A stretch of 35,142 nucleotides of DNA from an uncultured Coprobacillus sp. (GCA_964534245.1 CAZHQU010000002.1:1-35142); one strand, 5' to 3'. Shown: positions 52-25,412, counted from the first letter of the stretch. Notes: generated from the letters alone by a model not told the origin. Made by a program: numbers and translations.

Positions 52-2256
52 ATGAAAACAAAATCAATGAAAATAGTAGATAATAAAATCTATATGGGTA
101 ATTATTCTTTAGAAGAATTAGGTAAAAAGTATGGAACACCACTTTATGTGTATGATGAAATTGGATTAGTTGATAAAATCAATCGTTACAAGAACTCTTT
201 TAAGAGTGACAAATATGACTGTAGAGTAGTGTATGCGTCTAAAGCTTTTATTTGCCCAAGACTTGCTTCAATTTTAAGAGAAAGAAACGTTTATATTGAT
301 GCTATTAGTGCTGGTGATTTATACTTATTAAAACAATCTAATTATCCAATGGAAATGGTTGTTTTACATGGAAACAATAAATCTTATGCTGAATTAACTG
401 AAGCAGTAGAGTCTAACATTGGTTATGTTGTTGTTGATAACTATCACGAACTTAAACTTTTAAAAGAAATTACTGAAACTAAGAAGATGAAAGTTAGAAC
501 TTTATTTAGAATTAATCCTGGTATTGAAGGACATACTCATGCTTATATTGAGACATCACTTCTTGATTCTAAATTTGGTGAATCTATTTATGATAAAGAA
601 TTACAAGATAAAATCTTTAATTTGTATAAAGAAAGTGAATATATTGAATTTGATGGTTTCCATGCACATATAGGATCTCAAATTACTAATGGGGATTGTT
701 ATATTGCTTTGCAAAAGAAACTTATAGGTTTTATGAAAGAAGTTAAAGAAAAATATGGATTTGAGTTTAAGACTTTAAACGTTGGTGGAGGTTTTGGTAT
801 CAAGTATCTTGATGAAGATGAAGAACTAGATATTGAATCTTTACTTCCAAAATTAATTGAATCAATTGATGAAGAATTAAAAGCTAATGGCTTAGAAGTT
901 AAGAACTTAATGATTGAACCTGGTAGAAGTATTGTTGGAGACTCTTGTGTCACTATCTATACTTGTGGGGGAGTTAAGAGAACTTATGCTAATGTAGAAT
1001 ATATCTTTATTGATGGTGGTATGCCTGATAATATTAGACCTGCTTTATATGATGCTAAATATACTATTAAAAATGCTAGTAGATATGAAGATAAAGAATA
1101 TAAGAAATATAATATAAGTGGTAAATGCTGTGAAAGTGGTGACATTATTGCTAGAGGTGTTGAACTACCAGTTGCTAAAGTTGGTGACACTATTGTAGCA
1201 TTCACTACTGGTGCATATTGTTATTCTATGTCTATGAATTATAATGAATTAACAAAACCTGGTGTTATTTTTGTTAATGGCGATAAAGTTACTGAAGTTG
1301 TTAAGAGACAAACGCCAGCTGATATGTTATCTTGTCATGTGTTTACTGATGATGTGAAAATTTTTGATACTCATAGTGATATGTTATATGCTCTTGATCG
1401 TAAGTTGAAAGCAGGAGTAGAAAATCATTTTGAAGATTATCATGTTAATCAATTAAAGAATAGTGTAATCTCTGGTGGTTTATGGACAATGTATTCTCCT
1501 GATGACTTTGATTTAGTTGAAGGATTAAAGAATGCTTTAAAACAAATTGATATGTCTAAACTTCCTGGATTTAAAGTTATCTTAGGTTTAGAAGGATTAA
1601 GAAACTTAAAAACTGTTGAAGATTTAGATGAAATCTATGCATTGGGTTTCCGCCATGCGATGGTTACTTGGAATGAAGCTAATCACTTCGCAACAGGAGC
1701 TAGACCTGGAAAAGATGTAGACCCAAATAGAGGAATTACTGAAGAAGGTAAGAAATTATACAAACGTATGCAAGAGTTGGATATGATTATCGACTTAGCG
1801 CATTTAAACGAAAAGAGTTACTATGAAGCTTTAGAAATCGTTGATAAGAATATTATTTATTCTCACGGCTTATGTAAAGCATTATGTGATCACCCAAGAA
1901 ATCTGACTGATGATCAAATGATTGCTTTAAAGAAAGTTGATGGTTTATTTGGTTTAACTTTAGCTAATAACTTTGTAAGTCCTAATAAAGCGGAACAAGA
2001 TTTAGAACATTTCTTAGATCATTTAGATCATGCTGTTAAATTCATGAGCATTGATAATATTTGTTTTGGTTTCGACTTTATGGATTATTTAAGCGAATTC
2101 CCTAATTCAAATATCGTTGATGTATCAGACGCCACAAAAGCATATAGAATTATTGATGGAATGAGAAGAAGAGGATATAGTGAAGAAGATATTCAAAAAG
2201 TATGTTATAAAAACTTTTATGAAAGATATAAGGACAAAGTAGTTTATGGTAAATAA
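52..2256 (+). CDS. lysA: Fusion protein: diaminopimelate decarboxylase (PLP, fold-type III) N-terminal domain + M19 (renal-type) zinc dipeptidase C-terminal domain
   Basis: LysA motifs: VYASKAF (PLP lysine), GGGFGIKY, EPGRSIVG, GKCCESGD, GAYCYSMSMNYN. From about nt 1357 there are M19 motifs: FDTHSD (HxD), ILGLEGL, DLAHLNEKS, IYSHG, HPRNLTDDQ, FGFDFMD. The frame is continuous across the junction. The ORF track starts at GTG 40, but ATG 52 lies 6 nt after GAGG (42-45), so 52 is preferred. Confidence 0.8.
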   Translation: MKTKSMKIVDNKIYMGNYSLEELGKKYGTPLYVYDEIGLVDKINRYKNSFKSDKYDCRVVYASKAFICPRLASILRERNVYIDAISAGDLYLLKQSNYPMEMVVLHGNNKSYAELTEAVESNIGYVVVDNYHELKLLKEITETKKMKVRTLFRINPGIEGHTHAYIETSLLDSKFGESIYDKELQDKIFNLYKESEYIEFDGFHAHIGSQITNGDCYIALQKKLIGFMKEVKEKYGFEFKTLNVGGGFGIKYLDEDEELDIESLLPKLIESIDEELKANGLEVKNLMIEPGRSIVGDSCVTIYTCGGVKRTYANVEYIFIDGGMPDNIRPALYDAKYTIKNASRYEDKEYKKYNISGKCCESGDIIARGVELPVAKVGDTIVAFTTGAYCYSMSMNYNELTKPGVIFVNGDKVTEVVKRQTPADMLSCHVFTDDVKIFDTHSDMLYALDRKLKAGVENHFEDYHVNQLKNSVISGGLWTMYSPDDFDLVEGLKNALKQIDMSKLPGFKVILGLEGLRNLKTVEDLDEIYALGFRHAMVTWNEANHFATGARPGKDVDPNRGITEEGKKLYKRMQELDMIIDLAHLNEKSYYEALEIVDKNIIYSHGLCKALCDHPRNLTDDQMIALKKVDGLFGLTLANNFVSPNKAEQDLEHFLDHLDHAVKFMSIDNICFGFDFMDYLSEFPNSNIVDVSDATKAYRIIDGMRRRGYSEEDIQKVCYKNFYERYKDKVVYGK

Positions 2257-3319
2257 TAAAGTTAGAGAACTCATTGAAAGATTAGAAACAGCAGTTAAAG
2301 AAGGGATATTTCCAGGAGGAAATTTTGCTTTAGTATGTAGCGAAGGAACGTTTACTGGAACTGTTGGTAAAAAAGCCTTATTTCCAAAAGAAGAAGCTAA
2401 TGATATCGATACACTTTATGATATGGCATCATGCTCTAAAGTATTAAGTACAACAACTTGTGTTTTAAAACTTTTAGAACAAGGGAAATTAAAATTATTT
2501 GATACAGTAAAAAAATACTTGCCTAGATTTAAATATGAAAATATTCTTATATGGGACTTAATAACTCATACATCAGGACTTCCTGCTGGTGTAAGTGGAG
2601 TATGTAAGATTAAAAGTCGTGAAGAAGCATTAGATAAGATTTATGACTTAGATTTAATTTATGAAAAGAATACAAAAATAGTTTATTCTGATATCGGATT
2701 CATATTATTAGGATTTATAATTGAAGAGGTATCAGGAATGACTTTAGATAAATATGCTAAAGAAAATGTGTTTGATCCTTTAGAAATGTATGATACAGGA
2801 TACAATCCAGTTGACAAATTAAGATGTGCACCAACTGAAGAACGTAATGATGATATCGTAAAAGGTATAGTACGTGGAAACGTTCATGATGAAATGGCGT
2901 ATATCTTGGGTGGAGTTGCTGGGCACGCAGGACTATTTAGTACATGTAAAGACGTATCTCATTTTATTGAGATGGTTCTTAACTATGGTGAATACAATGG
3001 TAAAAAGATTTTATCAAAAGCTACTATTGACTTAATGTTCACTCCTCAAGTTCAAGAGAAAAAAGGTATTGCTTTAACTCTTAATACTCGTGGAATCGGT
3101 TGGATTGTACAAGGAGATTACTGCTCAGCTGGTGACTTAGCTAGCCCGGAAACAATACTTCATACAGGTTTCACTGGAACAAATGTGTTTATTGATCGAA
3201 TAAATATGGTCGGATTCTCTCTTCTTACAAATAGAGTTCATCCAACTAGACAAAATACAAAAATCATACCTTATAGAGGTATGTTAGGAAATTATATTAT
3301 TGCTAATTTTGGCGAATAA
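2246..3319 (+). CDS. Cytoplasmic serine hydrolase of the beta-lactamase/PBP fold; possible AmiE-like MurNAc-L-Ala amidase
   Basis: SxxK motif ASCSKV, YxN-like YSDIGF and KTG-like HTGFTG. No signal peptide. The start overlaps the upstream stop by 11 nt. The amidase role is inferred only from context (LdcA and NagZ nearby) and from the B. subtilis AmiE precedent. Confidence 0.7.
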   Translation: MVNNKVRELIERLETAVKEGIFPGGNFALVCSEGTFTGTVGKKALFPKEEANDIDTLYDMASCSKVLSTTTCVLKLLEQGKLKLFDTVKKYLPRFKYENILIWDLITHTSGLPAGVSGVCKIKSREEALDKIYDLDLIYEKNTKIVYSDIGFILLGFIIEEVSGMTLDKYAKENVFDPLEMYDTGYNPVDKLRCAPTEERNDDIVKGIVRGNVHDEMAYILGGVAGHAGLFSTCKDVSHFIEMVLNYGEYNGKKILSKATIDLMFTPQVQEKKGIALTLNTRGIGWIVQGDYCSAGDLASPETILHTGFTGTNVFIDRINMVGFSLLTNRVHPTRQNTKIIPYRGMLGNYIIANFGE

Positions 3320-3354
3320 AAACTTACGATAATTTAAATAGAGGAGAAAAAAAT

Positions 3355-4344
3355 ATGTGTAATGTTACATTAAAACCATTTAAGAAAGAAATGACTGAAG
3401 AAGTTGTAAAACTTTGGAATGAAAATGCTTATGGCCATACTATTTATGCTGAACTGTCTACTGAAGAATTTACTAGTAAATTCTTAAATAATCCTGATTA
3501 TAAAGAAGAAGGTAGCGTAGTAGCCTGTGATGGTAATGAAATAGTTGGTTTTGGTAATGCTATTTACAGATTAGGAACTGATCCTGCTGTTCAACCAGGA
3601 TATATCACTATGATTGTTGTAAAGATTGAATATCAAAGAAAAGGAATTGGCACACAAATTCTCAAATATCTTGAAGCGTTCTTAAAAGCTGAAGGTAGAA
3701 CATTTATTCGTAATTTCTTTGGTTCACCAATTAATTTAAAATGGTACGTTCCAGGATATGATAAACATGAACATGCTGGAGCACCTGCTGTTCCATATAA
3801 CACACCTTATTACTATTTGTTATTAGCAAATAGATATGTTTCAAATGGACAACAAGATGCATTCCATGTTGATTTAACTAAATTTGAAATGCCTAAGCCA
3901 GTATTAGATAAAATTGCTGAAAATGAAAAAGATGGATATACATTAACTTACTACGATCCAAAATTACATTATGGATTTGAAGAAATGTTTGACGCATTAA
4001 ATCATGATGGATTTAGAATGGCAGTAAGAAACGTATTAGCACAAGAAAACCCAGCTCCATTATTAATTGCTCAAAAAGATGGAGAAATCTTAGGATTCAC
4101 TGGACCAGTTAGAACTGAACCGAGTGGAAGAGCGTTCTTAGCAGGTGTTGCTATTCATCCAAAAGCTCAAAAACGTGGACTTGGTAAAACAATGTTCTGC
4201 GAATTATGTAATAGATCAAAACAAAATGGTGCTACATTCATGACATTATTTACAGGTAGTGACAATAAAGCTCGTAACATTTATTTATATGCTGGTTTAA
4301 GAATTGTTCAATCATTTAATGTTATGAGAAAAGATTTAGTTTAA
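3355..4344 (+). CDS. GNAT-family N-acetyltransferase with two tandem GNAT domains (329 aa)
   Basis: Two acetyl-CoA motif-A-like segments, QRKGIGTQIL (N-terminal half) and QKRGLGKTMF (C-terminal half). A GAGGAG RBS sits upstream of ATG 3355. Confidence 0.75.
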   Translation: MCNVTLKPFKKEMTEEVVKLWNENAYGHTIYAELSTEEFTSKFLNNPDYKEEGSVVACDGNEIVGFGNAIYRLGTDPAVQPGYITMIVVKIEYQRKGIGTQILKYLEAFLKAEGRTFIRNFFGSPINLKWYVPGYDKHEHAGAPAVPYNTPYYYLLLANRYVSNGQQDAFHVDLTKFEMPKPVLDKIAENEKDGYTLTYYDPKLHYGFEEMFDALNHDGFRMAVRNVLAQENPAPLLIAQKDGEILGFTGPVRTEPSGRAFLAGVAIHPKAQKRGLGKTMFCELCNRSKQNGATFMTLFTGSDNKARNIYLYAGLRIVQSFNVMRKDLV

Positions 4345-4378
4345 TTTATAAACTAATATACAAAAATAAAGTGAAAAA

Positions 4379-4415
4379 TATAGACTATATAGTGAATAAT
4401 ATAGTATAGACTATA
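4379..4415. promoter_or_regulatory. Candidate operator: two exact copies of the 11-bp palindrome TATAGaCTATA (4379-4389, 4405-4415)
   Basis: Exact 11-mer repeated 26 bp apart in the 121-bp gap upstream of the LD-carboxypeptidase gene. The second copy extends to TAGTATAGACTA, which resembles the TGGT-N-TA-N-ACCA core of GntR/HutC (DasR/NagR-type) sites. No binding protein is encoded in the window. Confidence 0.3.
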
Positions 4416-4465
4416 AACAAATAAAAAAATATTTATATAAAAATTATTAGATAGGAATTAGAATT

Positions 4466-5401
4466 ATGCTATTAAAACATCTATCAAAAGGTGATACAAT
4501 TGGGATTATTAATCCATCATTTAAAAACCCTATAGACTCATTGACTAGATATAGCAAAATGATTGAGTGCATTGAAGGTTTAGGCTATAAAATTAAATTT
4601 GGTAAATCATTCTTTGCTGAAGAGGGTTATTTAGCTGGTAGTGATGAACTTCGAGCAGAAGATGTTAACGATATGTTTAGAGATGAAGAAGTTAAAGCAA
4701 TCGTTTGTATGCGTGGTGGTTATGGCGCTAGTAGAATGATTGATAAAGTTGACTTTGCTTTGATTAAAGAAAATCCAAAAATTATTTGTGGATTTAGTGA
4801 TATTACCGTGTTATTAAATGCAATTAGTAAGAAATGTGATATTCCAACTATTCATGGTTTGGTTGGTATATATATTGGATCTAACTCTTGTGATGAAGGT
4901 TCACTTGATGATTTTTGGAAAGTTCTTACTGAAAAACAAAAAGGAAGAGTTTTACAAAATCCTAATGATAAGTGTAAAACGTTAGTGGGTGGTAAAGCTA
5001 CTGGAAAACTAGTTGGTGGTAACTTAAGCTTAGTAGCAACGCTTGTTGGATCTGAGTATGAAGTAGATTTCACTGATAAAATTGTATTCTTAGAAGAAGT
5101 TTCTGAGGAACCTTACCAAGTTGATAGATATCTTTCAGCAATCCGTCTTCGTGGAATGTTTGAAAAGGCTAAAGGTTTTGTGTTTGGATATTTTACTGGT
5201 AGTGAACCAAGTGAAAGTCGAAAAGGAACTCAAACAATAATGGATGTAATAAAACATTATGTTGAAAAATTAGGAAAACCAGTTATATATGATTTTGCAT
5301 GTGGTCACAGTTTTCCATTTGTTAACTTACCGATAGGCACTACTGTTACACTAGATGCCGATGCAAAAACAATAACAATTGAGGAGGAAATTTATGAGTA
5401 A
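4466..5401 (+). CDS. ldcA: LD-carboxypeptidase (peptidase S66; muramoyl-tetrapeptide carboxypeptidase)
   Basis: S66 triad context: GFSDITVLL (Ser), FLEEVSEEPYQVDRYL (Glu), CGHSFPFVNLPIG (His). About 310 aa, with no signal peptide. Confidence 0.85.
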   Translation: MLLKHLSKGDTIGIINPSFKNPIDSLTRYSKMIECIEGLGYKIKFGKSFFAEEGYLAGSDELRAEDVNDMFRDEEVKAIVCMRGGYGASRMIDKVDFALIKENPKIICGFSDITVLLNAISKKCDIPTIHGLVGIYIGSNSCDEGSLDDFWKVLTEKQKGRVLQNPNDKCKTLVGGKATGKLVGGNLSLVATLVGSEYEVDFTDKIVFLEEVSEEPYQVDRYLSAIRLRGMFEKAKGFVFGYFTGSEPSESRKGTQTIMDVIKHYVEKLGKPVIYDFACGHSFPFVNLPIGTTVTLDADAKTITIEEEIYE

Positions 5402-6710
5402 ACCAATTAAAAGATTTTGTTTTGAGGGGAATATTAAATATTTTGGATCTAATGTTGATGTAACGATTCCGGATGAATATGTTGAAAAAGATGTTGAACT
5501 TCGTGGTGCGTGGTTATCGACTGTTGCAAATATTGATATTCCTAAGATGAAGGATACGTCTTTAGAAAGTCAAGAAGAATTAAAGAAATATTTATTAAAG
5601 GTAATTGACACATTGAAGGAATTTAATATGAATACTATTATTTTCCAAGTAAGACCAGTTAATGATGCTTTATATAAATCTAAATTAAATCCATGGAGTT
5701 CTGTATTAACAGGTGTTGAAGGTATGGATCCTGGTTTTGATGTGTTTGGATACTTCTGTGAAGAAGCTAAGAAAAATAATATTGATGTTCATGCTTGGAT
5801 TAATCCATATAGAGCAGGAAGAATTGACATTGTTGAAGCGAAGATGACTAAAGAAGAATTCATTGCCACTCTTGCTCCAAATAACTTTGCAAGAATGCAT
5901 CCAGAGTGTACAATTCTTACAAAACAAAATAAATTATTATTAGATCCTGCTAATGAATTAGTAAGAGAATATGTAAGTGATAGTATTGTTGAGATTGCTA
6001 AAAACTATGATATTAAAGCAATTCACATTGATGATTATTTCTATCCATATGAACAAGTAGCTGATCCAGATGAAGAACAAAAACAAAAAGAAGCTGGATT
6101 TGAAAAAGTAAGTGACTTTAGAAGACATAATGTTAATTTAATGATTGAATTAATTCATAATAAACTTGCTAAACTTGACAAGAAAGTTGAATTTGGTATT
6201 AGTCCATTTGGTATTTATCGTACTGATAGTAAATATTTTGATGAAGAAGATGAATCTGCTTGGGAATTTGGATCTAATAATGCTAAAGGCTGTACAACTA
6301 ATTATAAAGGTTTATATGCTGATGTTTATAAGTGGATGGAAGAAGGCTGGATTGACTATGTAGTTCCTCAAGATTATTGGGACTTAGATAATACTAAATT
6401 AGATGAAGAAGGAAAAGAAGTTTGCGTAGTTAGATATGCTGATATCGCTAAATGGTGGAGTTGGGCTGCTGAAAAGACTAATACTAAACTTTATATTGGT
6501 CAAGCATTCTATCGTTATACTAAGGAAGGCCCTTGGGCTAATCCAGAAGAAATTCCTAATCAATTAAAATATAATCAAAACTATGAAAACATTCTAGGAA
6601 CAATTTTCTTTACATTTAGAGATTTCTATCGTGAAGATTGTGAAAGTATTGTTGAAGGAAAGAAACTTCTTAAGACTTTATGGACAAAACCAGCTAAAAG
6701 TGGTTATTAG
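5394..6710 (+). CDS. Glycosyl-hydrolase-like family 10 protein (GHL10/UPF0748, YddW/DigH/YngK-like), cytoplasmic
   Basis: Family-typical segments ELRGAWLSTVANIDIP, FQVRPVNDALYKS and VHAWINPYR. No signal peptide. The ORF track starts at TTG 5379, but ATG 5394 follows GAGGAGG (5381-5387), so 5394 is preferred. It overlaps the ldcA stop. Confidence 0.7.
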   Translation: MSKPIKRFCFEGNIKYFGSNVDVTIPDEYVEKDVELRGAWLSTVANIDIPKMKDTSLESQEELKKYLLKVIDTLKEFNMNTIIFQVRPVNDALYKSKLNPWSSVLTGVEGMDPGFDVFGYFCEEAKKNNIDVHAWINPYRAGRIDIVEAKMTKEEFIATLAPNNFARMHPECTILTKQNKLLLDPANELVREYVSDSIVEIAKNYDIKAIHIDDYFYPYEQVADPDEEQKQKEAGFEKVSDFRRHNVNLMIELIHNKLAKLDKKVEFGISPFGIYRTDSKYFDEEDESAWEFGSNNAKGCTTNYKGLYADVYKWMEEGWIDYVVPQDYWDLDNTKLDEEGKEVCVVRYADIAKWWSWAAEKTNTKLYIGQAFYRYTKEGPWANPEEIPNQLKYNQNYENILGTIFFTFRDFYREDCESIVEGKKLLKTLWTKPAKSGY

Positions 6711-6852
6711 TAATAATATAAATTTATAAATTATATAAGTATTTAGGTTACATATTGAATATCTTAAACTAGGTAAAACTGATATTGATATTAGCGTTAT
6801 TTCTTTAGGATGTGAAGGTTTTTCGGAAAAATCTAAAGAGGAATGCTATGAG

Positions 6853-7905
6853 ATGTTTAAGTATGCATATGAAAGAGGCGTTAACTATATAGATATGTAT
6901 GCATCCGATCCTGTGTTTCAAGAAAATATAGGGTATGCTATTAAAAAATTAGGTAGATCTAATATTTATATTCAAGGGCATTTATGTTCGGCTTGGAAAA
7001 ATGGTCAATACTATAGAACTAGAAATATTGATGATACTAAGAAAGCTTTTGAAGATATGCTTAAACAAATGAATACATCTTACATTGATGTTGGAATGAT
7101 ACATTATTGTGATGAAATAAGTGATTTTGATAATATTATGAATGGTCTTATTATTGAATATGTTAAAGATTTATTAGATAAAGGCATCATTAAAATGATT
7201 GGTATTTCAACTCATAATCAAAGAGTAGCGATTAAAAGTATCGAGTCAGGTATAATAAATGTTATTATGTTAAGTGTTAATCCTGCGTATGATATGCTTC
7301 CAGAAAATGAAGATGTTGATATTTTATTTGAAGATAAAACTTTTGATAGAGTATATATGGGAATTGATCCATTGAGAGATGAAATGTATAAGCTTTCTGA
7401 AACGAATAAAGTATCTATTACAGTAATGAAACCATTTAGTGGAGGCTTGCTATTTGATAAAAAACGTTCACCATTCGGAAAAGCATTAACTCCAGTTCAG
7501 TGCATAAGCTATGCTCTAGACAGATTGGGTGTTGCTTGTGTATTAGTTGGCGTTAAAAATATTCATGAACTTGAAGAATCATTAAAGTATTTAGTTTCAA
7601 AAAAAGAAGAAAGAGATTATTCGGAAATAATATCAAAAGCTCCTAAAAAAGAATTCGATGGAAACTGTATGTATTGTGGACATTGTGCGCCTTGTACAAA
7701 GGGAATCAATATAGCTAAAGTAAATAAGTTTTTGGATTTAGCTATTACTGAAGGAAAAGTTTTAGAAACTGTGAGAGAACATTATGATGTTTTAGAACGT
7801 CATGCGAGTGAGTGTATTGCCTGTGGAAAATGTTTGAAAAACTGTCCTTTTGGTGTAGACATAATTGGAAAAATGAAACAAGCAAGAAATGTATTCGGTA
7901 GATAA
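6853..7905 (+). CDS. Aldo/keto reductase fused to a C-terminal 2x[4Fe-4S] ferredoxin-like domain; the true start is probably upstream (ATT 6754)
   Basis: AKR body plus cysteine clusters CMYCGHCAPCTKG and CIACGKCLKNCPFG. The conserved AKR N-terminus (EYLKLGKTDIDISVISLGCEGF) is encoded in-frame at 6757-6852, but no ATG, GTG or TTG follows the TAA at 6736-6738. Confidence 0.7.
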   Translation: MFKYAYERGVNYIDMYASDPVFQENIGYAIKKLGRSNIYIQGHLCSAWKNGQYYRTRNIDDTKKAFEDMLKQMNTSYIDVGMIHYCDEISDFDNIMNGLIIEYVKDLLDKGIIKMIGISTHNQRVAIKSIESGIINVIMLSVNPAYDMLPENEDVDILFEDKTFDRVYMGIDPLRDEMYKLSETNKVSITVMKPFSGGLLFDKKRSPFGKALTPVQCISYALDRLGVACVLVGVKNIHELEESLKYLVSKKEERDYSEIISKAPKKEFDGNCMYCGHCAPCTKGINIAKVNKFLDLAITEGKVLETVREHYDVLERHASECIACGKCLKNCPFGVDIIGKMKQARNVFGR

Positions 7906-7954
7906 ATTTGATATAATAATTTAAATTTAAAATATAAAATATTATAAAAATATT

Positions 7955-7985
7955 AGAGTGAAAGTACTAACTTTCGCTCTTTTTT
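7955..7985 (+). terminator. Rho-independent terminator ending unit 1
   Basis: 10-bp stem AGAGTGAAAG / CTTTCGCTCT (one G-T pair), 6-nt loop, followed by TTTTT. Confidence 0.8.
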
Positions 7986-8109: not shown

Positions 8110-8138
8110 TTGAAAAAAAATGGCTTTTGTGCTATAAT
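8110..8138 (+). promoter_or_regulatory. SigA-type promoter with extended -10
   Basis: TTGAAA (8110-8115), 17-nt spacer, TGc-TATAAT (8130-8138). It lies 40 nt upstream of ATG 8178, which has an AGGAG RBS at 8167-8171. Confidence 0.65.
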
Positions 8139-8177
8139 ATGAATAATGAGGAAACTATGAAGATATAGGAGCGTAAT

Positions 8178-10058
8178 ATGATAAATTTATCCCCAAACGT
8201 TTCTAAATTTAAATCACTTATCGGTGAGTATGTTTGTACAAAACCGCTTAAGTATTTCTTTTTGGAACAAAAAGTAAACGCTTTTATTTTCTTAAACCTT
8301 GAAGCACAAAAAGCCGATGATGAAGATAAGGCTGATATCGTTTTTAAATTTAATGAAACTCTCAAACCTGAGAGTTATTCTTTAAAAGTTGATGAAAAGG
8401 TTATCATTGAATATTCTTCTGAATCTGGTGCTTATTATGCTATCCAAACTCTAAAGTGGTACGTTAAAGAATTTGAGGCTGATATTGGAGTTAATATTAA
8501 AATTCCTAAGTTTGAAATTTATGATGAACCTAAAACTAAAGTAAGAGGTTTGATGCTTGATATAAGTCGTGATAAAGTTGCTTCGCTAGAAACAATTAAG
8601 AAAATAATTGATTTAATGTCAGAACTTAAGATGAATCATCTAGAGTTGTATGTTGAAGGCTTCTCTTTTGAATATAAGTCATTCAAAGAGTATTTAGAAG
8701 AAGATGGATTTATTACTTTAGATGAATACTTGAAACTTGAAAAGTACGCTAATGAAAGATTTATTGATTTTGTCCCTAATCAAAATGGATTCGGTCATAT
8801 GACTGATTGGTTGGCAAAAGACGAATTAAAAGATTTAGCTATTTGTCCTAACGGGATAAATTTATGGGGTCGTTGGAGAAAACCAAGTACATTAGATCCT
8901 TTAAATCCAGGATCATTAGAACTTGTTAGAAAAATGTATGCGGATATGCTTCCATATGCAAATTCAAAATATTTTAATATGAATTTTGATGAACCGTTTG
9001 AACTTTCTAGAGGTCTTCCTGAAGGAGAAGACGCTGAAGAGGTTTATTTAGAATTTGTTAATAAAGTTTATAAAGAAGTTAAGAAATATGATAAAATACC
9101 ACTTCTTTGGGGTGATGTTTTAGTTAAACATGAAAGCAAATGGGATAAACTTCCTAAGGATATGATTTTTATTGACTGGGGTTATGATGCACCTTATTCA
9201 TTTGCAAATCATGCGAAAAAACTTAGTGAGAAGAAAGTTCCATTTATGTGCGCACCAGGAACAACAAGCTGGTCAAGCTTCTTAGGAAGATATATTGACT
9301 GGTATGAAAATATCAAAAATGCAGTTGATGCTGTGTATGATTATTCTGGTGAAGGTGTTATCTTAACTGACTGGGGTGATTTTGGTCACTTGCAATTTTG
9401 GTCAATAACTTTAGCTCCACTGATTTATATGGGATTATATTCATGGAGTCATAAAGAAGGAATTATATTAAAAGTTAGAGATTATTTAAATCAATATTTA
9501 CAAGATAAAGATAAATTAATAGGTGATTTAATCTTAGATCTCGAAAATAGCTATCGTTATGATAATGATTATTGTGGTAATGGTAGTAGAAGTTTTTATA
9601 CATTTATGTGGGCAAGTTGTGCATTTGAAGATTCTAAAAAACTAGGAATTACTCCCTGTGAGTATTTCTTGTCTAAGGTCAAGGGTGTTCAACTGTCTAA
9701 GAAAAAATTTAAGGTTATCAACGAGCTCTTAGACTTAAAATGTCAAGACCTGGATTTAATAGATAGGCACAATGATGAACTAGATTTAGTTTGTGAAGAA
9801 CTAAAACAATCAGTTCGAACTGTTAAATTAATTACTTATCTAAGTGTTGCGTTAAATAAGGAAGAAGATTTAACTAGAGAAGAAAGGCTTAACTATTTAG
9901 ATTATGTGTTGAGCAAAAAAGATGAGCACATTGATAAACAAAGAACGTTATGGCTTAAACGAAATAAGTCTGGTGGATTGGAAAGATCTATTAGCAGACT
10001 TACTGAGTTTTTCAGATTAGTCGAGGAATCAAAATTATGTCTACAAAATTATTTCTAA
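8178..10058 (+). CDS. GH20-like beta-N-acetylhexosaminidase, cytoplasmic
   Basis: VRGLMLDISRDK (GH20 substrate-arginine region), MNHLELYVEG, and a candidate catalytic Asp-Glu pair in NMNFDEPFEL. No signal peptide. The family call rests on motif resemblance only. Confidence 0.6.
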   Translation: MINLSPNVSKFKSLIGEYVCTKPLKYFFLEQKVNAFIFLNLEAQKADDEDKADIVFKFNETLKPESYSLKVDEKVIIEYSSESGAYYAIQTLKWYVKEFEADIGVNIKIPKFEIYDEPKTKVRGLMLDISRDKVASLETIKKIIDLMSELKMNHLELYVEGFSFEYKSFKEYLEEDGFITLDEYLKLEKYANERFIDFVPNQNGFGHMTDWLAKDELKDLAICPNGINLWGRWRKPSTLDPLNPGSLELVRKMYADMLPYANSKYFNMNFDEPFELSRGLPEGEDAEEVYLEFVNKVYKEVKKYDKIPLLWGDVLVKHESKWDKLPKDMIFIDWGYDAPYSFANHAKKLSEKKVPFMCAPGTTSWSSFLGRYIDWYENIKNAVDAVYDYSGEGVILTDWGDFGHLQFWSITLAPLIYMGLYSWSHKEGIILKVRDYLNQYLQDKDKLIGDLILDLENSYRYDNDYCGNGSRSFYTFMWASCAFEDSKKLGITPCEYFLSKVKGVQLSKKKFKVINELLDLKCQDLDLIDRHNDELDLVCEELKQSVRTVKLITYLSVALNKEEDLTREERLNYLDYVLSKKDEHIDKQRTLWLKRNKSGGLERSISRLTEFFRLVEESKLCLQNYF

Positions 10059-10077: not shown

Positions 10078-13000
10078 ATGAATAAAATTACTTATAATCC
10101 AAATTTAATGAAGAAATTAGTTTTAGGGTTAATTTGTTTATTATTAGTTGCTTGGTTAGCATATGCGATTATATCAAGCTATACTGATAAAGGACATATT
10201 ACTTCTAATTCAAGTGCTTCTTCATCAGAAATTCCAACGGGTTCTTATCAAAATTATATTAAATTAACAGCTGGAATTGAAGAATCTAAATTAGAATCAT
10301 TTGATATCAGCTATGTAACAGATGCAAATGAAGATAATCAATATTCTGCTATTTACAAAGATTATACAAGTACTAGACTTGAAAACGAAATCGTAATTGA
10401 TGGCAATGATGCAGAAGTTGAAGGTGAAAGCTCAGAATTAAATTGGCCAAGTACTGATGGTTATAAAGATATGTATGATAAATACTTAAATGGTGAAACT
10501 GGTGCTTATACTGATGAAACTGGTAAAGTTTCTTTCACTATTAAGGGAATTCAAAAAACAGGTTTTTATAATTTAATGATTAGTTACTTCATTCCTAAAG
10601 GAAAAGGCTCAGTATCTCAAAGAAAGATTTTAGTTAATGGTGAAGTTTTATTTGAAGAGTTATTAAACTATTCATTTGCTAGAGAGTATGAAGACAGTGC
10701 TGATAGTAAGGATGCTAATGGAAATTTCAAGACTGACGTTAATGGTAATGACTTAAAACCAAGTCAAACAGAAATCTTTGTTTATCATGAAGATGAATAT
10801 ATTCAAGATAGAACAGGTTATATTTCAAAACCTTATATGATTCTATTACAAGGTGGACAAGATAACGTTATTACTTTTGAAAGTGTTAAAGAAAATCTTC
10901 TTATTACTGAATTAAAAGTTTTAAGCATTGATTCTTACAACATTCCAACATATGAAGAATATATTGCTAAATATCAAAGCGAATTAAATAAACAAATGAC
11001 AATTAAAGATATAAGCACTTATAAGTACGAAAGTGAAGGTTCTGGTAGAACATCTACTACTCCTACATTATATCCTACTACTGATAGAACAAGCGCAACA
11101 AACTATCCAACTGACCCAGTTAGAACTAAGTATAATGCAATTGGTGGTTCAAAATGGACAACAGCTGGTGACTCTATCAGTTGGCAAATTACAGCTGAAG
11201 AAGCAGGTTTATATCAATTATCATTCCGTGCTAAACAAGATTTAGCTCGTGGTATGTTCGCAACAAGAAAACTTTATGTTGATGGTAAGCAACCATTTGC
11301 TGAAGCTGAAAACTTAAGATTCTATTATAACTCTGAATATAGCTTAGTTACATTAGGATCTGGTGAAGGCGAAGAACAAGAAACATATTATATCTACTTA
11401 GATGAAGGAACTCATACAATCACTTTACAAGCAACATTAGGTGATTATGCTTCTGCAATAAGTAGAGTTAACCAAGTTGTAGATAAATTAAATGCTATTT
11501 ATTTAAAGATTATTGCAATCACTACAACTAGCCCTGATGATTATACTGATTATGGTATTTATGGTGAAAACAGTCGTTTAGGTAATGATGAAGAAGGTAA
11601 TCCAATTGATGTTCAAAAAATCTTCTCTGATGCTGCGATTGAAATTAATTCTATTTCTCAATATATCACTGAATTAACAGGTGAAAAGAGTAGCTTAAAT
11701 AATGTATTGGATAAATTAGTATTACAAATCGGTGGTAAAGTGGATTATAATGGTGACGGCGAAGCTGAAGATGTTGGTGGATTTGCAACAAAACCTCGTA
11801 ATATTACTAAAGACTTAGCTGCATTCAAAACTAACTTATCATCATTAGGTACATGGGTACTTGATATTCAAGAACAATCTTTAACAATTGAATCATTCTA
11901 TGTTGCTCCAAAAGGTGCTGAACTTCCAAATGCTGAAGATAACTTCTTCAAAGGCTTATGGTTCAGTATTCGTGGATTCTTTGCTTCATTCTTCTTCGAC
12001 TATGAATCAATTGGAGTAATCGATACAGAAGGATTTGAAAGAGAAATCGAAGTTTGGTTCTTAACAAGTGAAACTTCAGGTCGTGAACAAGCAAACGTAT
12101 TAAAGAATTTAATTGATATGTACTTCACTTATGAAAGTGAACAAACAGAACAAGAAGTAGATAATTATAAAGATTATGATTGCAATGTAATATTAAAAGT
12201 ATTAGCTGCTGGTGTATTACTTCCTGCAACTCTTGCTGGAACTGGCCCAGACGTAGCAATCAACGTTGGTGAAGGTTTACCAATGAACTATGCACTTCGT
12301 GGTGCTGTATATGACTTAGAAAGATTTAATTATAGCGATTGGGATAATCCAAACTTAGTTAAAGGTGGCCCAACTGCTGCAAACTATACTGGTGATTTCG
12401 ATAAGGCTGTTGAAGAAAGATTCACTTCTGCTGAAATGGTTCCATTTAGATTAGATGACCAATTAGAAGATGGAACTCCAGTTACTGGTTATTATGGTTT
12501 CCCTAACACTGCTTCATTCTTAGTAATGTTCTATAGAACAGATATCTTTGAAGAAAATGGTTGGGAAGTTCCAAGAACATGGGATGATGTAATTGATTTA
12601 GCTAGAGAATTAAGTGTTATGAACTTAGGATTCTACATTCCATTTGAAGGTGCGGGTTCAACAATCTTTGCGACTTTATTATATCAAATGGGTGGTCAGT
12701 TCTACTTAGAAGATAATACAGCATGTGCATTTTCACAAGAAGTTGCTAAGAAAGCATTCGAACAATGGTGTAGCTATTTCTGTGATTATGGTTTTGATAA
12801 AGCTGCGAACTTTACAAACAGATTCCGTAGTGGTGAAATGCCAATTGGTATCTCTAGTTATACATTATATAATACATTAGCGGTATTCGCACCTGACATT
12901 GCTGGTAAATGGGCATTTGCACCATTACCTGGTATCGAACAAGAAGATGGAACAATTGAAAATACTGGTACTTTAACAATTACTTCATCTATTATTATGG

Positions 13001-13386
13001 AACAATCAGATGATCTAGAAGCGTCTTGGGCATTCTTAAAATGGTGGACATCAACTCCTGTTCAAGAAAAATATTCAATTGAAATTGAATCAATCTTAGG
13101 AAGTGGAGCTCGTCATAACACTGCTAATAGATACGCACTTGAAAGTTTACCATGGAGTGCAAGCGAATTAGAAACTTTAACTTCTCAATTTGATAATGCA
13201 TTCGGTATTCCTGAAGTGGCTGGTGGTTACTACATTAGTCGTAACTTAGAAAATGCTATTCGTGAAGTTATTAACAATGACTCAAATCCACGTGAAACAT
13301 TTGCTGAATATGTAGAATTAATCGACAGTGAAATTACACGTAAACGTGAAGAGTTTGAATTTAAACTTGCTGAGGAAAGTAGGTAG
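10078..13386 (+). CDS. Giant membrane-anchored extracellular solute-binding protein (1102 aa): N-terminal signal anchor, two CBM-like beta-sandwich modules, C-terminal family-1 sugar-binding domain
   Basis: TM segment LVLGLICLLLVAWLAYAII with no lipobox. Two CBM-style segments: TGFYNLMISYFIPKGKGSVSQRKILVNGEV and AGLYQLSFRAKQDLARGMFATRKLYVDGKQ. The C-terminal ~450 aa has a binding-protein signature (YRTDIFEENGWEVPRTWDDVIDLAREL). Confidence 0.7.
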   Translation: MNKITYNPNLMKKLVLGLICLLLVAWLAYAIISSYTDKGHITSNSSASSSEIPTGSYQNYIKLTAGIEESKLESFDISYVTDANEDNQYSAIYKDYTSTRLENEIVIDGNDAEVEGESSELNWPSTDGYKDMYDKYLNGETGAYTDETGKVSFTIKGIQKTGFYNLMISYFIPKGKGSVSQRKILVNGEVLFEELLNYSFAREYEDSADSKDANGNFKTDVNGNDLKPSQTEIFVYHEDEYIQDRTGYISKPYMILLQGGQDNVITFESVKENLLITELKVLSIDSYNIPTYEEYIAKYQSELNKQMTIKDISTYKYESEGSGRTSTTPTLYPTTDRTSATNYPTDPVRTKYNAIGGSKWTTAGDSISWQITAEEAGLYQLSFRAKQDLARGMFATRKLYVDGKQPFAEAENLRFYYNSEYSLVTLGSGEGEEQETYYIYLDEGTHTITLQATLGDYASAISRVNQVVDKLNAIYLKIIAITTTSPDDYTDYGIYGENSRLGNDEEGNPIDVQKIFSDAAIEINSISQYITELTGEKSSLNNVLDKLVLQIGGKVDYNGDGEAEDVGGFATKPRNITKDLAAFKTNLSSLGTWVLDIQEQSLTIESFYVAPKGAELPNAEDNFFKGLWFSIRGFFASFFFDYESIGVIDTEGFEREIEVWFLTSETSGREQANVLKNLIDMYFTYESEQTEQEVDNYKDYDCNVILKVLAAGVLLPATLAGTGPDVAINVGEGLPMNYALRGAVYDLERFNYSDWDNPNLVKGGPTAANYTGDFDKAVEERFTSAEMVPFRLDDQLEDGTPVTGYYGFPNTASFLVMFYRTDIFEENGWEVPRTWDDVIDLARELSVMNLGFYIPFEGAGSTIFATLLYQMGGQFYLEDNTACAFSQEVAKKAFEQWCSYFCDYGFDKAANFTNRFRSGEMPIGISSYTLYNTLAVFAPDIAGKWAFAPLPGIEQEDGTIENTGTLTITSSIIMEQSDDLEASWAFLKWWTSTPVQEKYSIEIESILGSGARHNTANRYALESLPWSASELETLTSQFDNAFGIPEVAGGYYISRNLENAIREVINNDSNPRETFAEYVELIDSEITRKREEFEFKLAEESR

Positions 13387-13394
13387 TTAACATT

Positions 13395-14384
13395 ATGGAA
13401 GTAAAGAACGAACAAAAACTAAACATTTTCCAAAAAATTAAAAAATGGTATTTAGAAAAACAACGTAAGATGGAAAATTGGAGTAAGAATGGTAAACCTA
13501 TACGTCGTAAATTATATTTGAATAGAAAATTATATTTAATGATGTTCCCTTATTTATTACTATTCTTTGTATTCACAATTCTTCCAGTTATAATCAGTTT
13601 CTTAATCAGTTTTACTGACTTTAACTTATTAGAATTTCCACCAAATTGGCGTGGATTTAGAAACTATTTAGACTTATTCTTAGAAGATACAATCTTTATA
13701 ATAGCTGTTAAAAACACATTGATTATTGCTGTTATCGTTGGTCCAGGTGGATATTTATTATCATTCGTATTTGCATGGTTAATCAATGAGTTACCAAGAT
13801 ATTTGAGAGCTGTAGTAACATTTATGTTCTACGCTCCAGCCTTAACGGGTGCCGTATCAATTTGGGCTTTAATCTTTAGTAGTGATATGTATGGATGGGC
13901 AAACTCATTATTAATTAATATGAATTTTATTCGTGAACCAATATTATTCTTAAAAGATACAGATTATATTTTACCAATTGTTATTGTAGTTCAATTATGG
14001 ACAAGCTTAGGTGTTAACTTCTTAACATTAATTGCTGGTCTTAAAGGTGTAAATAAAGAATTTTATGAAGCTGGTGCCATCGATGGTATCAGAAATAGAT
14101 GGCAAGAATTATGGTATATTACTTTACCATGTATTAAAGAACAATTATTATTTAGTGCCGTTATCCAAATTTCAAATACTCTTGGAGTAGGTGCAATTAC
14201 AACAGCACTTTGTGGATTCCCTTCAGTTGGTTATGCTGGTCATACAATTGTTAACCACTTAACTGACTACACTAGTACAAGATATGAATTAGGTTATGCT
14301 TCAGCAATAGCCACATTACTATTCGTAGCATCAATCGGATTAAATAGTTTAATTAGAAAAGTTATTAGAAAGGTAGGTTCTTAA
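13395..14384 (+). CDS. Sugar ABC transporter permease (MalF/LplB-like)
   Basis: Multiple TM segments and the EAA loop EAGAIDGIRNRWQELWYITLPCIK. Confidence 0.85.
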   Translation: MEVKNEQKLNIFQKIKKWYLEKQRKMENWSKNGKPIRRKLYLNRKLYLMMFPYLLLFFVFTILPVIISFLISFTDFNLLEFPPNWRGFRNYLDLFLEDTIFIIAVKNTLIIAVIVGPGGYLLSFVFAWLINELPRYLRAVVTFMFYAPALTGAVSIWALIFSSDMYGWANSLLINMNFIREPILFLKDTDYILPIVIVVQLWTSLGVNFLTLIAGLKGVNKEFYEAGAIDGIRNRWQELWYITLPCIKEQLLFSAVIQISNTLGVGAITTALCGFPSVGYAGHTIVNHLTDYTSTRYELGYASAIATLLFVASIGLNSLIRKVIRKVGS

Positions 14385-14386
14385 AA

Positions 14387-15373
14387 ATGGCTAAAGAAGT
14401 TAAACAAGCAAAGTCTTTTGAACAATTAGAACAAGAACGTTTACAGGCTAAGAACAATAAAAAGGCTCGCCATATAGATTCTCGACCTTTTGCTGAAATC
14501 TCGGATGCTAAATTAAAAAGAAGATCAAAAATTAAGAAACGTATAAATCGTTCAAAATTTGGGGATACAGTTTTATTCATCTTCCTTATCGGATCATCAA
14601 TCTTAAGTATTTTACCACTTATTATGATTGTAAATAATGCCTTCAAACCATTAGATGAAATTTTCCTATTCCCTCCAAAGATTTTCGTTATGAATCCAAC
14701 TCTTAATAACTTCGCTGACTTAGGAGTTGTACTTGGAACTTCACTTGTTCCATTCTCAAGATATTTATTCAATACTGTTTATGTAACTTTACTTGGTACA
14801 TTTGGACACGTAGTAGTTGCTTCAATGTGTTCGTATGTATTATCTAGATATAAAGTTCCTGGTGGTAAATTAATATTCTCATTAATCGTTTATGCATTAA
14901 TGTTCCCATCAAGTGTTACAGCAACTCCTAACTACATTATTTTAACTTATTTAGGATTAATTGATACACACTGGTCAATCGTATTACCAGTTATCGGTGG
15001 TACTATGGGTCTATTCTTAATGAAACAATTTATGGATCAAATTAGTATGGAATATATTGAATCAGCTAAACTAGATGGTGCTGGTGAATTTAGAATTTAT
15101 TGGACAATTGTTATGCCACTTGTAAAACCTGCTTGGATTACACTTGTTATCTTAAACTTCCAAAGTTTATGGAATACATATGGTTCAACAACAATTTATC
15201 GAGAAGACTTAAAGATGTTAAGTTACGCAATCAACCAAATTGCCTCTGCTGGTGTTGCTAGAACTGGTACATTAAATGCCGTTCAATTGGTTATGATTAC
15301 AGTTCCAATTGCCGTATTCATTTTCTCACAAAGTAATGTTATGGAAACAATGGCTCATTCAGGTATGAAGTAA
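14387..15373 (+). CDS. Carbohydrate ABC transporter permease (MalG/LplC-like) with a ~60-aa basic N-terminal extension
   Basis: EAA loop ESAKLDGAGEFRIYWTIVMPLVKP. It starts 2 nt after the upstream stop. Confidence 0.85.
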   Translation: MAKEVKQAKSFEQLEQERLQAKNNKKARHIDSRPFAEISDAKLKRRSKIKKRINRSKFGDTVLFIFLIGSSILSILPLIMIVNNAFKPLDEIFLFPPKIFVMNPTLNNFADLGVVLGTSLVPFSRYLFNTVYVTLLGTFGHVVVASMCSYVLSRYKVPGGKLIFSLIVYALMFPSSVTATPNYIILTYLGLIDTHWSIVLPVIGGTMGLFLMKQFMDQISMEYIESAKLDGAGEFRIYWTIVMPLVKPAWITLVILNFQSLWNTYGSTTIYREDLKMLSYAINQIASAGVARTGTLNAVQLVMITVPIAVFIFSQSNVMETMAHSGMK

Positions 15374-15383
15374 GAGGTGAAGT

Positions 15384-17156
15384 ATGAAGAAGATTATGAA
15401 AAAGTTTTTAATAATATTCTTATTTGTTGTATGTTTTAGTGTATCATTTAATGTATCTGCTGCAGGAGGTCATGGCGGTGGATACATGTATGATAGCGAT
15501 GGTCAATTAATTGAATCATCAGTTGGTTATACAGTTACTGAAGAAAATATTTATCATATTTTATCAGATGCTTGGATTAATGGATTTACATCAACAGAAG
15601 GTGTTATCGAATCTGAAATATTTAATAATCCAAGTGATATGTTCTTATACAAAGATGCTGAAACAGGTGAAGAAACAATTTATATTGTTGACTCAGGATC
15701 AAATTTTCTATTTATCTTTGATAAATCATTAAACTTTGTTAATAAATTTAGTACATTTGAAGTTGATCCTAGTGAATTCAGTATTCTTGAATTATCTAAG
15801 ATGAATACTTCAACAGATGGTAAAACAAAATCTGCTTTCTGGAATAGCAATAATAAAGCAAATTGGGAAAAAGTTAAAGATAATTGGGACGTTATTACTG
15901 AAACTAAATTTGAAGATCGTCAACCCGAAGAAAAATTCTCAATTAGTTGTTTAAATCTTTCAGGTGTATATCGTGCTTTAAGACCACTAAGAGATGAAAA
16001 TGGTAAAATCATTTTAAATGAAAATGAACAAACAGTTTATGAAGATGTTTTATATTTATGTGATGCTGGAAATCAACAAGTGGTTATTTTAGATTCAAAA
16101 ACTCTTAAAGTTAAACAAATTGTTTCTGCTCCTGAAAATGTAGACTTCACTTCAAAATTTCAACCAGTTAAAATGGTTACTGACTCAATGGGTAGAATGT
16201 ATATCATTTCTACAAACGTTTATGAAGGTATTCTATTAATGAACTATGATGGTACATTTATGACATTCGTTGGTGTTAACTATACTTCATTATCAGTTTG
16301 GGATGCTTTAAAGAGAAGTTGGAAAACTGAAGAACAATTAGCTCAAGAAACTACAATTTTACAAACATCATTTAACAATTTAACAATTGATAAAGATGGA
16401 TTCTTGTATACAGTTTCTGGTCCAGTTACAAATGTTGACGGATCAGTTAATACAGAAGCAATGATTAAGAAAATTAATCAAACTAATAAAGACGTATTAA
16501 AGAGAAATGGTTATTCTAAACCAATAGGTGACTTAATTACTATTAAGACTGGTGCTAATGCTGGTACAAGTAATTTCGTATCTATTACAATTAATGAATA
16601 TGGTGTATATACTGTAGCTGATACAAAAGGTAACAAATTATTTACATATGATAACGAAGGTAACTTATTATACATTTCTGGTGGTAGAGGTAGTCAAATT
16701 ACTAATATCAGTAATCCAGTAGCTATTACTTATCAAGGTGAAGATATTTTAGTTCTTGACAAAGGTAATAAATGTGTAATGCGTTATGAACCTACAGAAT
16801 TTGCTCAAAACATTAATAAAGCTGTTTATTATGAATATATTGGTGATTCAGCACATGCTGCTGATGAATGGCAAAACGTTATCAACAAAAACAACGCTTA
16901 TGAGTTAGCATATGTTGGTGTTGGTAAAAAGTATTATGATGAAAAGAGATATTTAGACGCAATGGAATATTTCAAGAATGGTTCAGATGTTAAATACTTC
17001 TCTAGAGCTTATAAGAATTATAGAGATGATATAATTGCTGAATACTTCCCATTTGTTGGTGGTGCTTTACTAGTATTAATCGGAGCAAATTATGCTTGGA
17101 AACTTGTTAAGAAAATTAAAGGAAAAAATCCTAAGTTTGAGGATGGTGAATTATAA
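15384..17156 (+). CDS. Secreted NHL-type beta-propeller repeat protein with a C-terminal TM anchor
   Basis: Signal peptide FLIIFLFVVCFSVSFNVSA|AGG. About 6 repeats of the type IYIVDSGSNFLFIFD, LYLCDAGNQQVVILD, MYIISTNVYEGILLMNYDG, VYTVADTKGNKLFTYDNEGN and ILVLDKGNKCVMRYEP. A TPR-like stretch is followed by the TM segment FPFVGGALLVLIGANYAWKL. Confidence 0.6.
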   Translation: MKKIMKKFLIIFLFVVCFSVSFNVSAAGGHGGGYMYDSDGQLIESSVGYTVTEENIYHILSDAWINGFTSTEGVIESEIFNNPSDMFLYKDAETGEETIYIVDSGSNFLFIFDKSLNFVNKFSTFEVDPSEFSILELSKMNTSTDGKTKSAFWNSNNKANWEKVKDNWDVITETKFEDRQPEEKFSISCLNLSGVYRALRPLRDENGKIILNENEQTVYEDVLYLCDAGNQQVVILDSKTLKVKQIVSAPENVDFTSKFQPVKMVTDSMGRMYIISTNVYEGILLMNYDGTFMTFVGVNYTSLSVWDALKRSWKTEEQLAQETTILQTSFNNLTIDKDGFLYTVSGPVTNVDGSVNTEAMIKKINQTNKDVLKRNGYSKPIGDLITIKTGANAGTSNFVSITINEYGVYTVADTKGNKLFTYDNEGNLLYISGGRGSQITNISNPVAITYQGEDILVLDKGNKCVMRYEPTEFAQNINKAVYYEYIGDSAHAADEWQNVINKNNAYELAYVGVGKKYYDEKRYLDAMEYFKNGSDVKYFSRAYKNYRDDIIAEYFPFVGGALLVLIGANYAWKLVKKIKGKNPKFEDGEL

Positions 17157-17860: not shown

Positions 17861-17872
17861 GAGGTTGAGACT

Positions 17873-21445: not shown

Positions 21446-21448
21446 TAA

Positions 21449-25352: not shown

Positions 25353-25412
25353 TAGGTATATAATATAATTATTAAAATTTTAAATATATAAAATAAATTA
25401 AGGAGAAAGAAA

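Follow-up and report, generated by a model that had tools for sequence, protein, structure and literature searches.

A conserved gene cluster of gut Bacilli that probably serves feeding on peptidoglycan

Escherichia coli recycles its murein in the cytoplasm by means of AmpG, NagZ, AmpD, LdcA, MpaA, YcjG/PepD, Mpl, AnmK and MurQ. In Bacillus subtilis, the enzymes of the rescue operon degrade peptidoglycan stepwise from the non-reducing end (PMC8054146, PMC5061867). Two further enzymes are relevant here: Cwp19 of Clostridioides difficile, a peptidoglycan lytic transglycosylase (PMC6016235), and GlmA of Clostridium acetobutylicum, the work of Reith and Mayer (2011) in the form in which it is cited in PMC4680927. 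This study concerns a window of 35,142 nucleotides from an uncultured Coprobacillus sp. (GCA_964534245.1, CAZHQU010000002.1:1-35142) and in particular its genes at 52-7905, which an initial annotation had read as an operon for the cytoplasmic breakdown of imported peptidoglycan fragments. The window makes up the complete contig C2 of a metagenome-assembled genome (85% complete, 1.93 Mb, ~30% GC). Homology, gene order and distribution across genomes strongly support cytoplasmic breakdown, and it is likely, as far as sequence comparison can tell, that the genes at 52-6710 are the peptide- and glycan-trimming unit of a one-strand peptidoglycan-feeding locus of ~42 kb.

Enzymes of the operon

Six co-directional open reading frames (ORFs) occupy positions 52-7905 of the plus strand, with the domains and the single shared terminator that the initial annotation had given them. 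The conserved operon consists of five of these genes, encoding a LysA::M19 fusion, an AmiE/YfeW-type enzyme of the beta-lactamase fold (Bla), a tandem GNAT acetyltransferase, LdcA and a Cwp19-like GHL10 protein.

The first gene (52..2256, 734 aa) encodes the diaminopimelate (DAP) decarboxylase LysA (residues 1 to ~430) fused to an M19 zinc dipeptidase (residues ~434-734). The LysA part scores 412 bits against TIGR01048, for which the equivalog cut-off is 297.9, and the next best family reaches 175 bits. The defining motifs of the LysA family, i.e. the pyridoxal phosphate lysine, EPGR and CESGD, are intact (K64 in YASKA, EPGR289 and CESGD360). The M19 part matches PF01244 with 206 bits (E 1e-60) and, aligned with PDB 3ly0/3fdg, retains the metal ligands H441/D443, E514, H584, H605 and D675, the N-terminal HxD (H441/D443) being placed by motif match only. 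Bacterial M19 enzymes are reportedly specific for L-Xaa-D-Xaa dipeptides, as is said of Sco3058 in work attributed to Cummings in 2010. From this preference and the fusion to LysA, we infer an L-D dipeptide as the substrate of the M19 domain, with mDAP-D-Ala and L-Ala-D-Glu as the two candidates.

No second LysA is encoded in this genome besides the fusion, and DapA was not found there; at 85% completeness, absences from this genome are weak evidence and absences from relatives are stronger. LysA and/or M19 were matched in 36 of the 38 relatives with at least 90% completeness (40 relatives in all). Within the window's family, 13 relatives have LysA and M19 fused and 6 have them as separate, neighbouring genes; counting this genome, they are fused or adjacent in 20 of the 25 family genomes searched. 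DapA was matched in three of 41 genomes and DapB exceeded its cut-off in one (G022), with the control genomes behaving as expected. Since DapA and DapB are missing from nearly all relatives, LysA is left as an orphan salvage enzyme with no internal supply of substrate. Through the fusion, wall DAP would be turned into lysine in a lineage that apparently has no lysine synthesis of its own. Both states occur within the window's genus (L025 2784-4993 compared with window 52-2256; fused in five genomes, separated by a 48-nucleotide gap in G004 and also split in G006), so the fusion state shifts over short evolutionary distances. Genome G022 is the sole one among the 40 relatives with adjacent dapA and dapB that both exceed the cut-off (C1:181009-182582); as it has neither MraY nor MurG, it would make DAP without building a wall.

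The second gene (2246..3319, 357 aa) had been tentatively compared with AmiE, and its product is indeed nearer to AmiE/YfeW than to esterases or D-peptidases. With E. coli YfeW/PBP4B it shares 35% identity (E 4e-55), against E 4e-19 or worse for the esterases, Flp/FmtA, ClbP and D-peptidases of the PDB (in round terms, ~1e-19 or worse). The E. coli yfeW gene follows murQ-murP, and PBP4B is the best NCBIfam match of the product. The motifs S62xxK65, Y147-S-D149 and H306-T-G308 are invariant in 15 relatives and common to YfeW. A 15-sequence profile scan of species genomes retrieved at least 596 relatives. Seven genomes of Bacillaceae and related groups show the order Bla-GH3-NamZ, which agrees with amiE-nagZ-namZ as published for B. 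subtilis (PMC8054146), and in Acidobacteriota and other phyla the 2246-type gene adjoins GH3, NamZ and MurQ. In a quick tree of beta-lactamase-fold proteins, where synteny in other Bacillaceae serves as proxy for B. subtilis AmiE (itself not in the tree), the product groups with its own order and then with clostridial forms, inside a group that holds the Bacillaceae proteins in AmiE position and YfeW; four other beta-lactamase-fold genes of this genome fall outside it. The PBP4B family search of the control genomes gave a B. subtilis match below the cut-off only, so AmiE is not tied to the family by that search. Sequence, gene neighbourhood and tree together assign the 2246 product to the AmiE/YfeW family, which makes it a probable exo-MurNAc-L-Ala amidase (MurNAc, N-acetylmuramic acid).

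The Bacillaceae forms have 559-573 aa and a signal peptide; those of this order and of Clostridia have ~350 aa and none. The cytoplasmic enzyme set that had been called unusual is free of signal peptides, as claimed, but is not unique to this lineage, given that the clostridial relatives of the 2246 product lack one too. In many Gram-negative forms, Bla is part of a GH3::Bla fusion of ~950-1000 aa, and the N-terminus of most of these is hydrophobic. Such fusions (loci L072-L131, e.g. L087 8001-9071, L095 and L097) occur in Acidobacteriota, Bacteroidota, Ignavibacteria and some Proteobacteria; their C-terminal part is the AmiE-like domain, and the gene lies beside NamZ and MurQ. The protein looks like a NagZ-AmiE fusion.

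The third gene (3355..4344, 329 aa) encodes two GNAT domains. Its AlphaFold2 model has a predicted local distance difference test score (pLDDT) of 90, and the top six Foldseek matches in the PDB are all to the C. acetobutylicum glucosamine N-acetyltransferase (E 9e-17, template modelling score 0.63-0.66). At sequence level, the match to GlmA is weak (E 1.7e-4, 18% identity, one domain only) and does not support an orthologous relationship. The true orthologue of this glucosamine/glucosaminide N-acetyltransferase is encoded at 26144..27133 on the plus strand (phmmer E 2e-37, full length, PDB 5kf1). The modelled fold and the weak sequence match together mark the operon GNAT as a divergent GlmA-fold paralogue. 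The two GNATs of the window share ~32% identity, in the N-terminal half alone. In both families of the order, as well as in two loci from clostridia, a gene of the 3355-4344 type adjoins the AmiE-like gene. The acceptors of the operon GNAT would most obviously be de-N-acetylated amino sugars, because GH3 and GH20 need the acetamido group; according to PMC8054146, de-N-acetylation blocks exo-digestion.

The fourth gene (4466..5401, 311 aa) encodes an LdcA-type LD-carboxypeptidase of family S66 with both S66 domains (PF02016 and PF17676) and an invariant S111, E210, H281 triad. Among the complete loci of the window's family, 13 of 18 contain the gene, and the 10 sister-family loci all lack it.

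The fifth gene (5394..6710, 438 aa) encodes a GHL10 protein (PF02638, 177 bits) that matches the catalytic domain of Cwp19 (PDB 5oq2) with E 4.6e-69. The proposed Cwp19 active-site positions DDY, Arg, Trp, PQxYW and GQ are kept, and Phe-Ser is replaced by Phe-Thr. The protein carries no signal peptide; this cytoplasmic copy is kept across both families. Lytic transglycosylase chemistry is predicted for it and is indirectly supported by AnmK in the same locus, since the anhydro-MurNAc products of a Cwp19-type enzyme fit AnmK. This genome encodes five further GHL10 paralogues of 872-1008 aa, all with signal peptides, which are candidates for an extracellular attack on the wall. The description of the operon as all-cytoplasmic therefore holds for the operon enzymes and not for the organism, which with these five proteins acts outside the cell as well. 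The five genes are arranged as two tandem pairs and a single gene (C30:5463-9391, C141:109-3887, C224:2384-3259), an unusually large set for a 2-Mb genome.

The sixth ORF, an aldo/keto reductase (AKR) with a 2x[4Fe-4S] dicluster according to Pfam (open frame 6739..7905, ATG 6853), had been counted as a member of the pathway. It is a local addition and not a member of the conserved operon: none of the 28 related loci covering the operon has it in this slot, which holds QueH, a small ORF or nothing instead, and its homologues in relatives lie on other contigs. Moreover, it has no canonical start. Ahead of ATG 6853, a further 38 codons of open frame (window 6739-6855) code for the conserved AKR N-terminus (YLKLGKT...SLGCEGF), with no ATG, GTG or TTG among them. 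The start may have been lost in a decaying gene, or a rare start codon (ATT near 6754) may be used.

Gene order and extent of the locus

The start of the Bla gene (2246) overlaps the LysA::M19 stop by 11 nucleotides, and the GHL10 ATG at 5394, which is preceded by GAGGAGG, overlaps the LdcA stop. An intrinsic-terminator-like hairpin with an 11-bp stem and a T-run (7955..7980, plus strand) is the sole plus-strand terminator-like site within 52-8300; the region 7906-8000 folds with -16.8 kcal/mol (z = -5.0 relative to shuffled sequences). Behind it, the best promoter-like site across 12 kb (8110..8138, plus strand, 11/12 matches and a TG extension) precedes the GH20/ABC unit, and an equivalent site stands before GH20 in G004, which is of the same genus. 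The genes of the locus would presumably be co-regulated. No lysine riboswitch or other leader was found near the operon with Rfam at gathering thresholds in the window and five related loci; the only matches in these sequences were the signal recognition particle RNA and the L31 leader, upstream in relatives.

Signal peptides of the window proteins were called by a hydropathy scan and not by SignalP. As had been stated for these enzymes, an N-terminal hydrophobic segment is absent from all six products as well as from GH20, GH3 and NagB. It is present in the binding protein, the NHL-like protein, DUF5696 and the Big_2 proteins.

The plus strand continues with a cytoplasmic GH20 beta-N-acetylhexosaminidase (8178..10058, Pfam and PDB matches). 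It is followed by an ATP-binding cassette (ABC) import cassette (10078..23726, assigned by Pfam and conserved order), which comprises an anchored binding protein of 1102 aa with a weak CBM35-like region below the Pfam cut-off, four permeases, an NHL-like protein, Yip1 and DUF5696. GH3 NagZ and NagB are encoded at 23787..26138 (GH3 against B. subtilis YbbD/NagZ E 3.5e-70; NagB PF01182), directly before the GlmA orthologue. A DDE transposase of an insertion sequence (IS) lies on the minus strand at the contig end (33464..34600, Pfam).

For the comparison of gene order, the window proteins were searched with tblastn against 40 retrieved loci. The order LysA-M19-Bla-GNAT-LdcA-GHL10-GH20-binding protein-permeases-NHL-Yip1-DUF5696 is found in 18 genomes from 14 genera of the window's family. 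In the sister family the order is Bla-(GNAT)-(GHL10)-M19-GHL10-GHL10-GH20-binding protein, with LysA elsewhere, and GH20 follows GHL10 in every complete locus of both families. One of the three sister-family GHL10 proteins is the cytoplasmic orthologue and two have 725-985 aa; of these two, the first copy has a signal peptide in five of six cases and the second in nine of ten. Apparent Bla::GNAT and GNAT::LdcA fusions in L017, L021 and L026 were rejected as artefacts of ORF extension; the gene calls of L008 (the contig of L017) show separate genes.

In two genomes of the same genus (G004 and G005), the strand runs on through the permeases, GH3, NagB, GlmA, two Big_2 lipoproteins and an unknown protein to NamZ, GH3/MupG, AnmK, MurQ and a hydrolase, the whole run measuring ~42 kb. 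The tail of this run (unk415-NamZ-GH3/MupG-AnmK-MurQ-hydrolase) is present in the window's own genome on contig C16 (L006 1-7878). As the window itself ends in an IS, the assembly was probably broken by the transposase before the NamZ-GH3::MupG-AnmK-MurQ block, which accounts for the missing MurQ. It had been noted that MurQ, NagA, sugar kinases and a regulator are absent, and this is correct inside the 35-kb window. Elsewhere in the genome, MurQ, AnmK, NamZ and MupG are on C16, NagA is on C24, and the kinase candidates comprise one of BadF type (C27) and ROK kinases (C226 and C60). Mpl gave no match over the cut-off. On C16, a single ORF of 874 aa (L006 2457-5081) joins a NagZ-like GH3 to the 6-phospho-N-acetylmuramidase MupG; the corresponding matches in G004 and G005 are two segments that adjoin or overlap and may be separate genes.

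Proposed pathway and competing explanations

Based on these assignments, a pathway can be proposed in which each substrate is predicted from the enzyme family. Secreted GHL10 enzymes, perhaps together with DUF5696, would cut a foreign wall outside the cell, and the ABC cassette would bring in the resulting fragments of N-acetylglucosamine (GlcNAc), MurNAc and peptide. Import of large GlcNAc-MurNAc-peptide oligomers, as previously suggested, is plausible, the size of the fragments being a matter of inference. In the cytoplasm, GlcNAc would be removed by GH20 and GH3, the stem peptide would be stripped off MurNAc by the AmiE-like enzyme, and the remaining glycan would be split by the Cwp19-like GHL10 and NamZ. 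The sugars could then be converted to fructose-6-phosphate via AnmK, MurQ, NagA and NagB. The GlmA orthologue and the operon paralogue would restore the acetyl groups of de-N-acetylated amino sugars and thereby make them accessible to the glycosidases. On the peptide side, LdcA would remove the terminal D-Ala of the tetrapeptide, the M19 domain would hydrolyse the L-D dipeptide (mDAP-D-Ala or L-Ala-D-Glu), and the fused LysA would decarboxylate the freed meso-DAP to L-lysine.

Several points weigh against this proposal. The route to free mDAP is incomplete, as no enzyme acting on gamma-D-Glu-mDAP was identified and none (MpaA/YkfC type) was searched for. Two of the operon products stay below the cut-offs of their nearest equivalogs: LdcA reaches 146 bits, where 378 is required for the E. 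coli equivalog, and the 2246 product reaches 181 bits of the 385 set for PBP4B, which means that it is not an equivalog of the enterobacterial PBP4B. The set is also not constant, with LdcA gone from five of the 18 family loci and from all sister-family loci and GNAT gone from two. Gene spacing does not set the 5' limit of the operon transcript, since dus adjoins LysA in relatives, where it ends 10-25 bp upstream of LysA or overlaps its start. The completeness of this genome weakens what is absent from it, and no RNA run is among the 20 sequencing runs listed as holding parts of the window. GH20, GH3, NagB and GlmA would suit chitin or chitosan equally well. Finally, LysA is unlinked to the locus in the sister family and in one genome stands beside polyamine genes; there (L033 9309-11050, minus strand) it adjoins an S-adenosylmethionine decarboxylase and an agmatinase-family gene, which may be a coincidence or may point to a second role of that LysA.

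The best surviving alternative, although unlikely, is that the operon recycles the products of the cell's own wall turnover, as in E. coli or B. subtilis. LdcA and AmiE/NagZ/NamZ/MurQ are classic recycling enzymes (PMC8054146, PMC5061867), and this genome has MurG and three transpeptidase-domain genes, with MraY present in four of the six genomes of the genus. However, 12 high-quality genomes from as many genera of the window's family have neither MraY nor MurG; ten of these keep the LysA-M19-Bla...GH20-ABC locus, and ten keep the AnmK-MurQ pair. A locus kept in relatives that build no wall is not there to recycle that wall, which argues for scavenging of foreign walls. Own-wall recycling is also opposed by the lack of an Mpl match over the cut-off for re-use of tripeptides, by the delivery of DAP to a decarboxylase, and by the five secreted GHL10 proteins together with the giant binding protein and its weak, sub-threshold CBM35-like region. 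In walled members, this genome included, foreign-wall use and own-wall recycling may coexist.

Considerably less probable is a locus directed at chitin, chitosan or host GlcNAc-glycans, with the peptide enzymes as chance neighbours. The generic nature of GH20, GH3, NagB and the GlmA orthologue, which fit GlcNAc and GlcN, and the weak CBM35-like match as the only such feature of the binding protein would agree with it. LysA, LdcA, the AmiE-like enzyme, the Cwp19-like GHL10, NamZ, MupG, AnmK and MurQ are, on the other hand, peptidoglycan-specific, and their genes are co-directional and syntenic across two families. That LysA::M19 is an ordinary lysine-biosynthetic gene placed here by chance, with no link to wall catabolism, is the least credible explanation and very improbable: LysA does keep a dUTPase/Dus neighbourhood in both families and is unlinked to the locus in the sister family, but DapA and DapB were not found in at least 37 of 41 genomes, leaving no internal DAP supply, and M19, which never lies outside the catabolic locus, is joined to LysA or next to it in 20 of the 25 family genomes counted above.

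The feeding on foreign peptidoglycan that we favour can tentatively be extended further. It is possible, though a less secure proposal than that for the locus itself, that the whole order of small-genome gut Bacilli, including its wall-less members, consists in part of peptidoglycan feeders, for which the walls of neighbours supply lysine and amino sugars. This reading is suggested by the lack of a DAP pathway and by LysA as the only lysine-synthesis route, often fused to a dipeptidase that would free meso-DAP. In that case, the lysine supply of these organisms would depend on the death of bacteria and on the turnover of walls in the gut. A lytic transglycosylase working in the cytoplasm on imported glycan oligomers would also place this class of enzyme in a new cellular setting. 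The related contigs come from rumen, rabbit, chicken, human gut and digester samples and carry the NCBI labels 'Bacilli bacterium' and 'Acholeplasmataceae bacterium'. The 20 sequencing runs listed as holding parts of the window are all of animal faeces or gut metagenome DNA, with shares of at most 0.39.

In the gut, peptidoglycan makes up a large pool of carbon and nitrogen, and the known pathways for it serve recycling of the own wall or salvage of MurNAc. In bacteria that are wall-less or of Gram-positive descent, the locus would form a system dedicated to nutrition, similar to a polysaccharide utilisation locus for the cell wall. If so, it would explain the retention of LysA in genomes without a DAP pathway and would assign testable functions to hitherto unstudied proteins (the AmiE-like amidase, the LysA::M19 fusion, the cytoplasmic GHL10 and the second GlmA-like GNAT). 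Consumers of muropeptides could also alter the pool of immune-active wall fragments in animals.

Comparison with known systems

Full-text searches, including DUF5696, DAP decarboxylase with salvage, and peptidoglycan utilisation, returned no paper describing this locus. The B. subtilis operon murQ-murR-murP-amiE-nagZ-namZ shares with it the families of the beta-lactamase-fold MurNAc-L-Ala amidase, GH3 NagZ, NamZ and MurQ (PMC8054146, PMC5061867). In B. subtilis, however, AmiE, NagZ and NamZ are secreted and the sugars enter via the MurP phosphotransferase system, whereas the enzymes here have no signal peptides and uptake would rely on the ABC cassette. LysA::M19, LdcA, GHL10, GH20, AnmK, MupG and two GlmA-like GNATs are additional here, and MurR and MurP are not among the locus genes, no search aimed at either having been made.

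The likeness to E. coli recycling lies in the cytoplasmic processing of anhydro-muropeptides with LdcA, NagZ, AnmK and MurQ. It differs in the amidase, which here is of the AmiE/YfeW type and not AmpD, in having no Mpl over the cut-off, and in the fate of DAP, which would be converted to lysine instead of being re-used, in a lineage without a DAP pathway and with several members without wall synthesis. With C. difficile Cwp19, the operon GHL10 has the catalytic domain and the proposed active-site residues in common; Cwp19, in contrast, is a secreted autolysin anchored to the wall by CWB2 repeats, and the operon protein is the bare cytoplasmic domain (PMC6016235, PMC5765458). C. acetobutylicum GlmA (PDB 5kf1) has the tandem-GNAT fold of both window GNATs, of which only the one at 26144-27133 is a full-length orthologue.

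The salvage system of Tannerella forsythia resembles the proposed pathway in its dependence on the wall material of neighbours and in its NamZ-type enzymes (bioRxiv 10.1101/2021.12.02.470905). T. forsythia uses the MurNAc for its own wall and processes it in the periplasm, whereas the present pathway would be catabolic, would yield lysine and is kept in members without wall synthesis. The parts of the locus are of known families, and what is new is their combination, the cytoplasmic setting, the logic of an orphan LysA and the retention of the locus in wall-less relatives.

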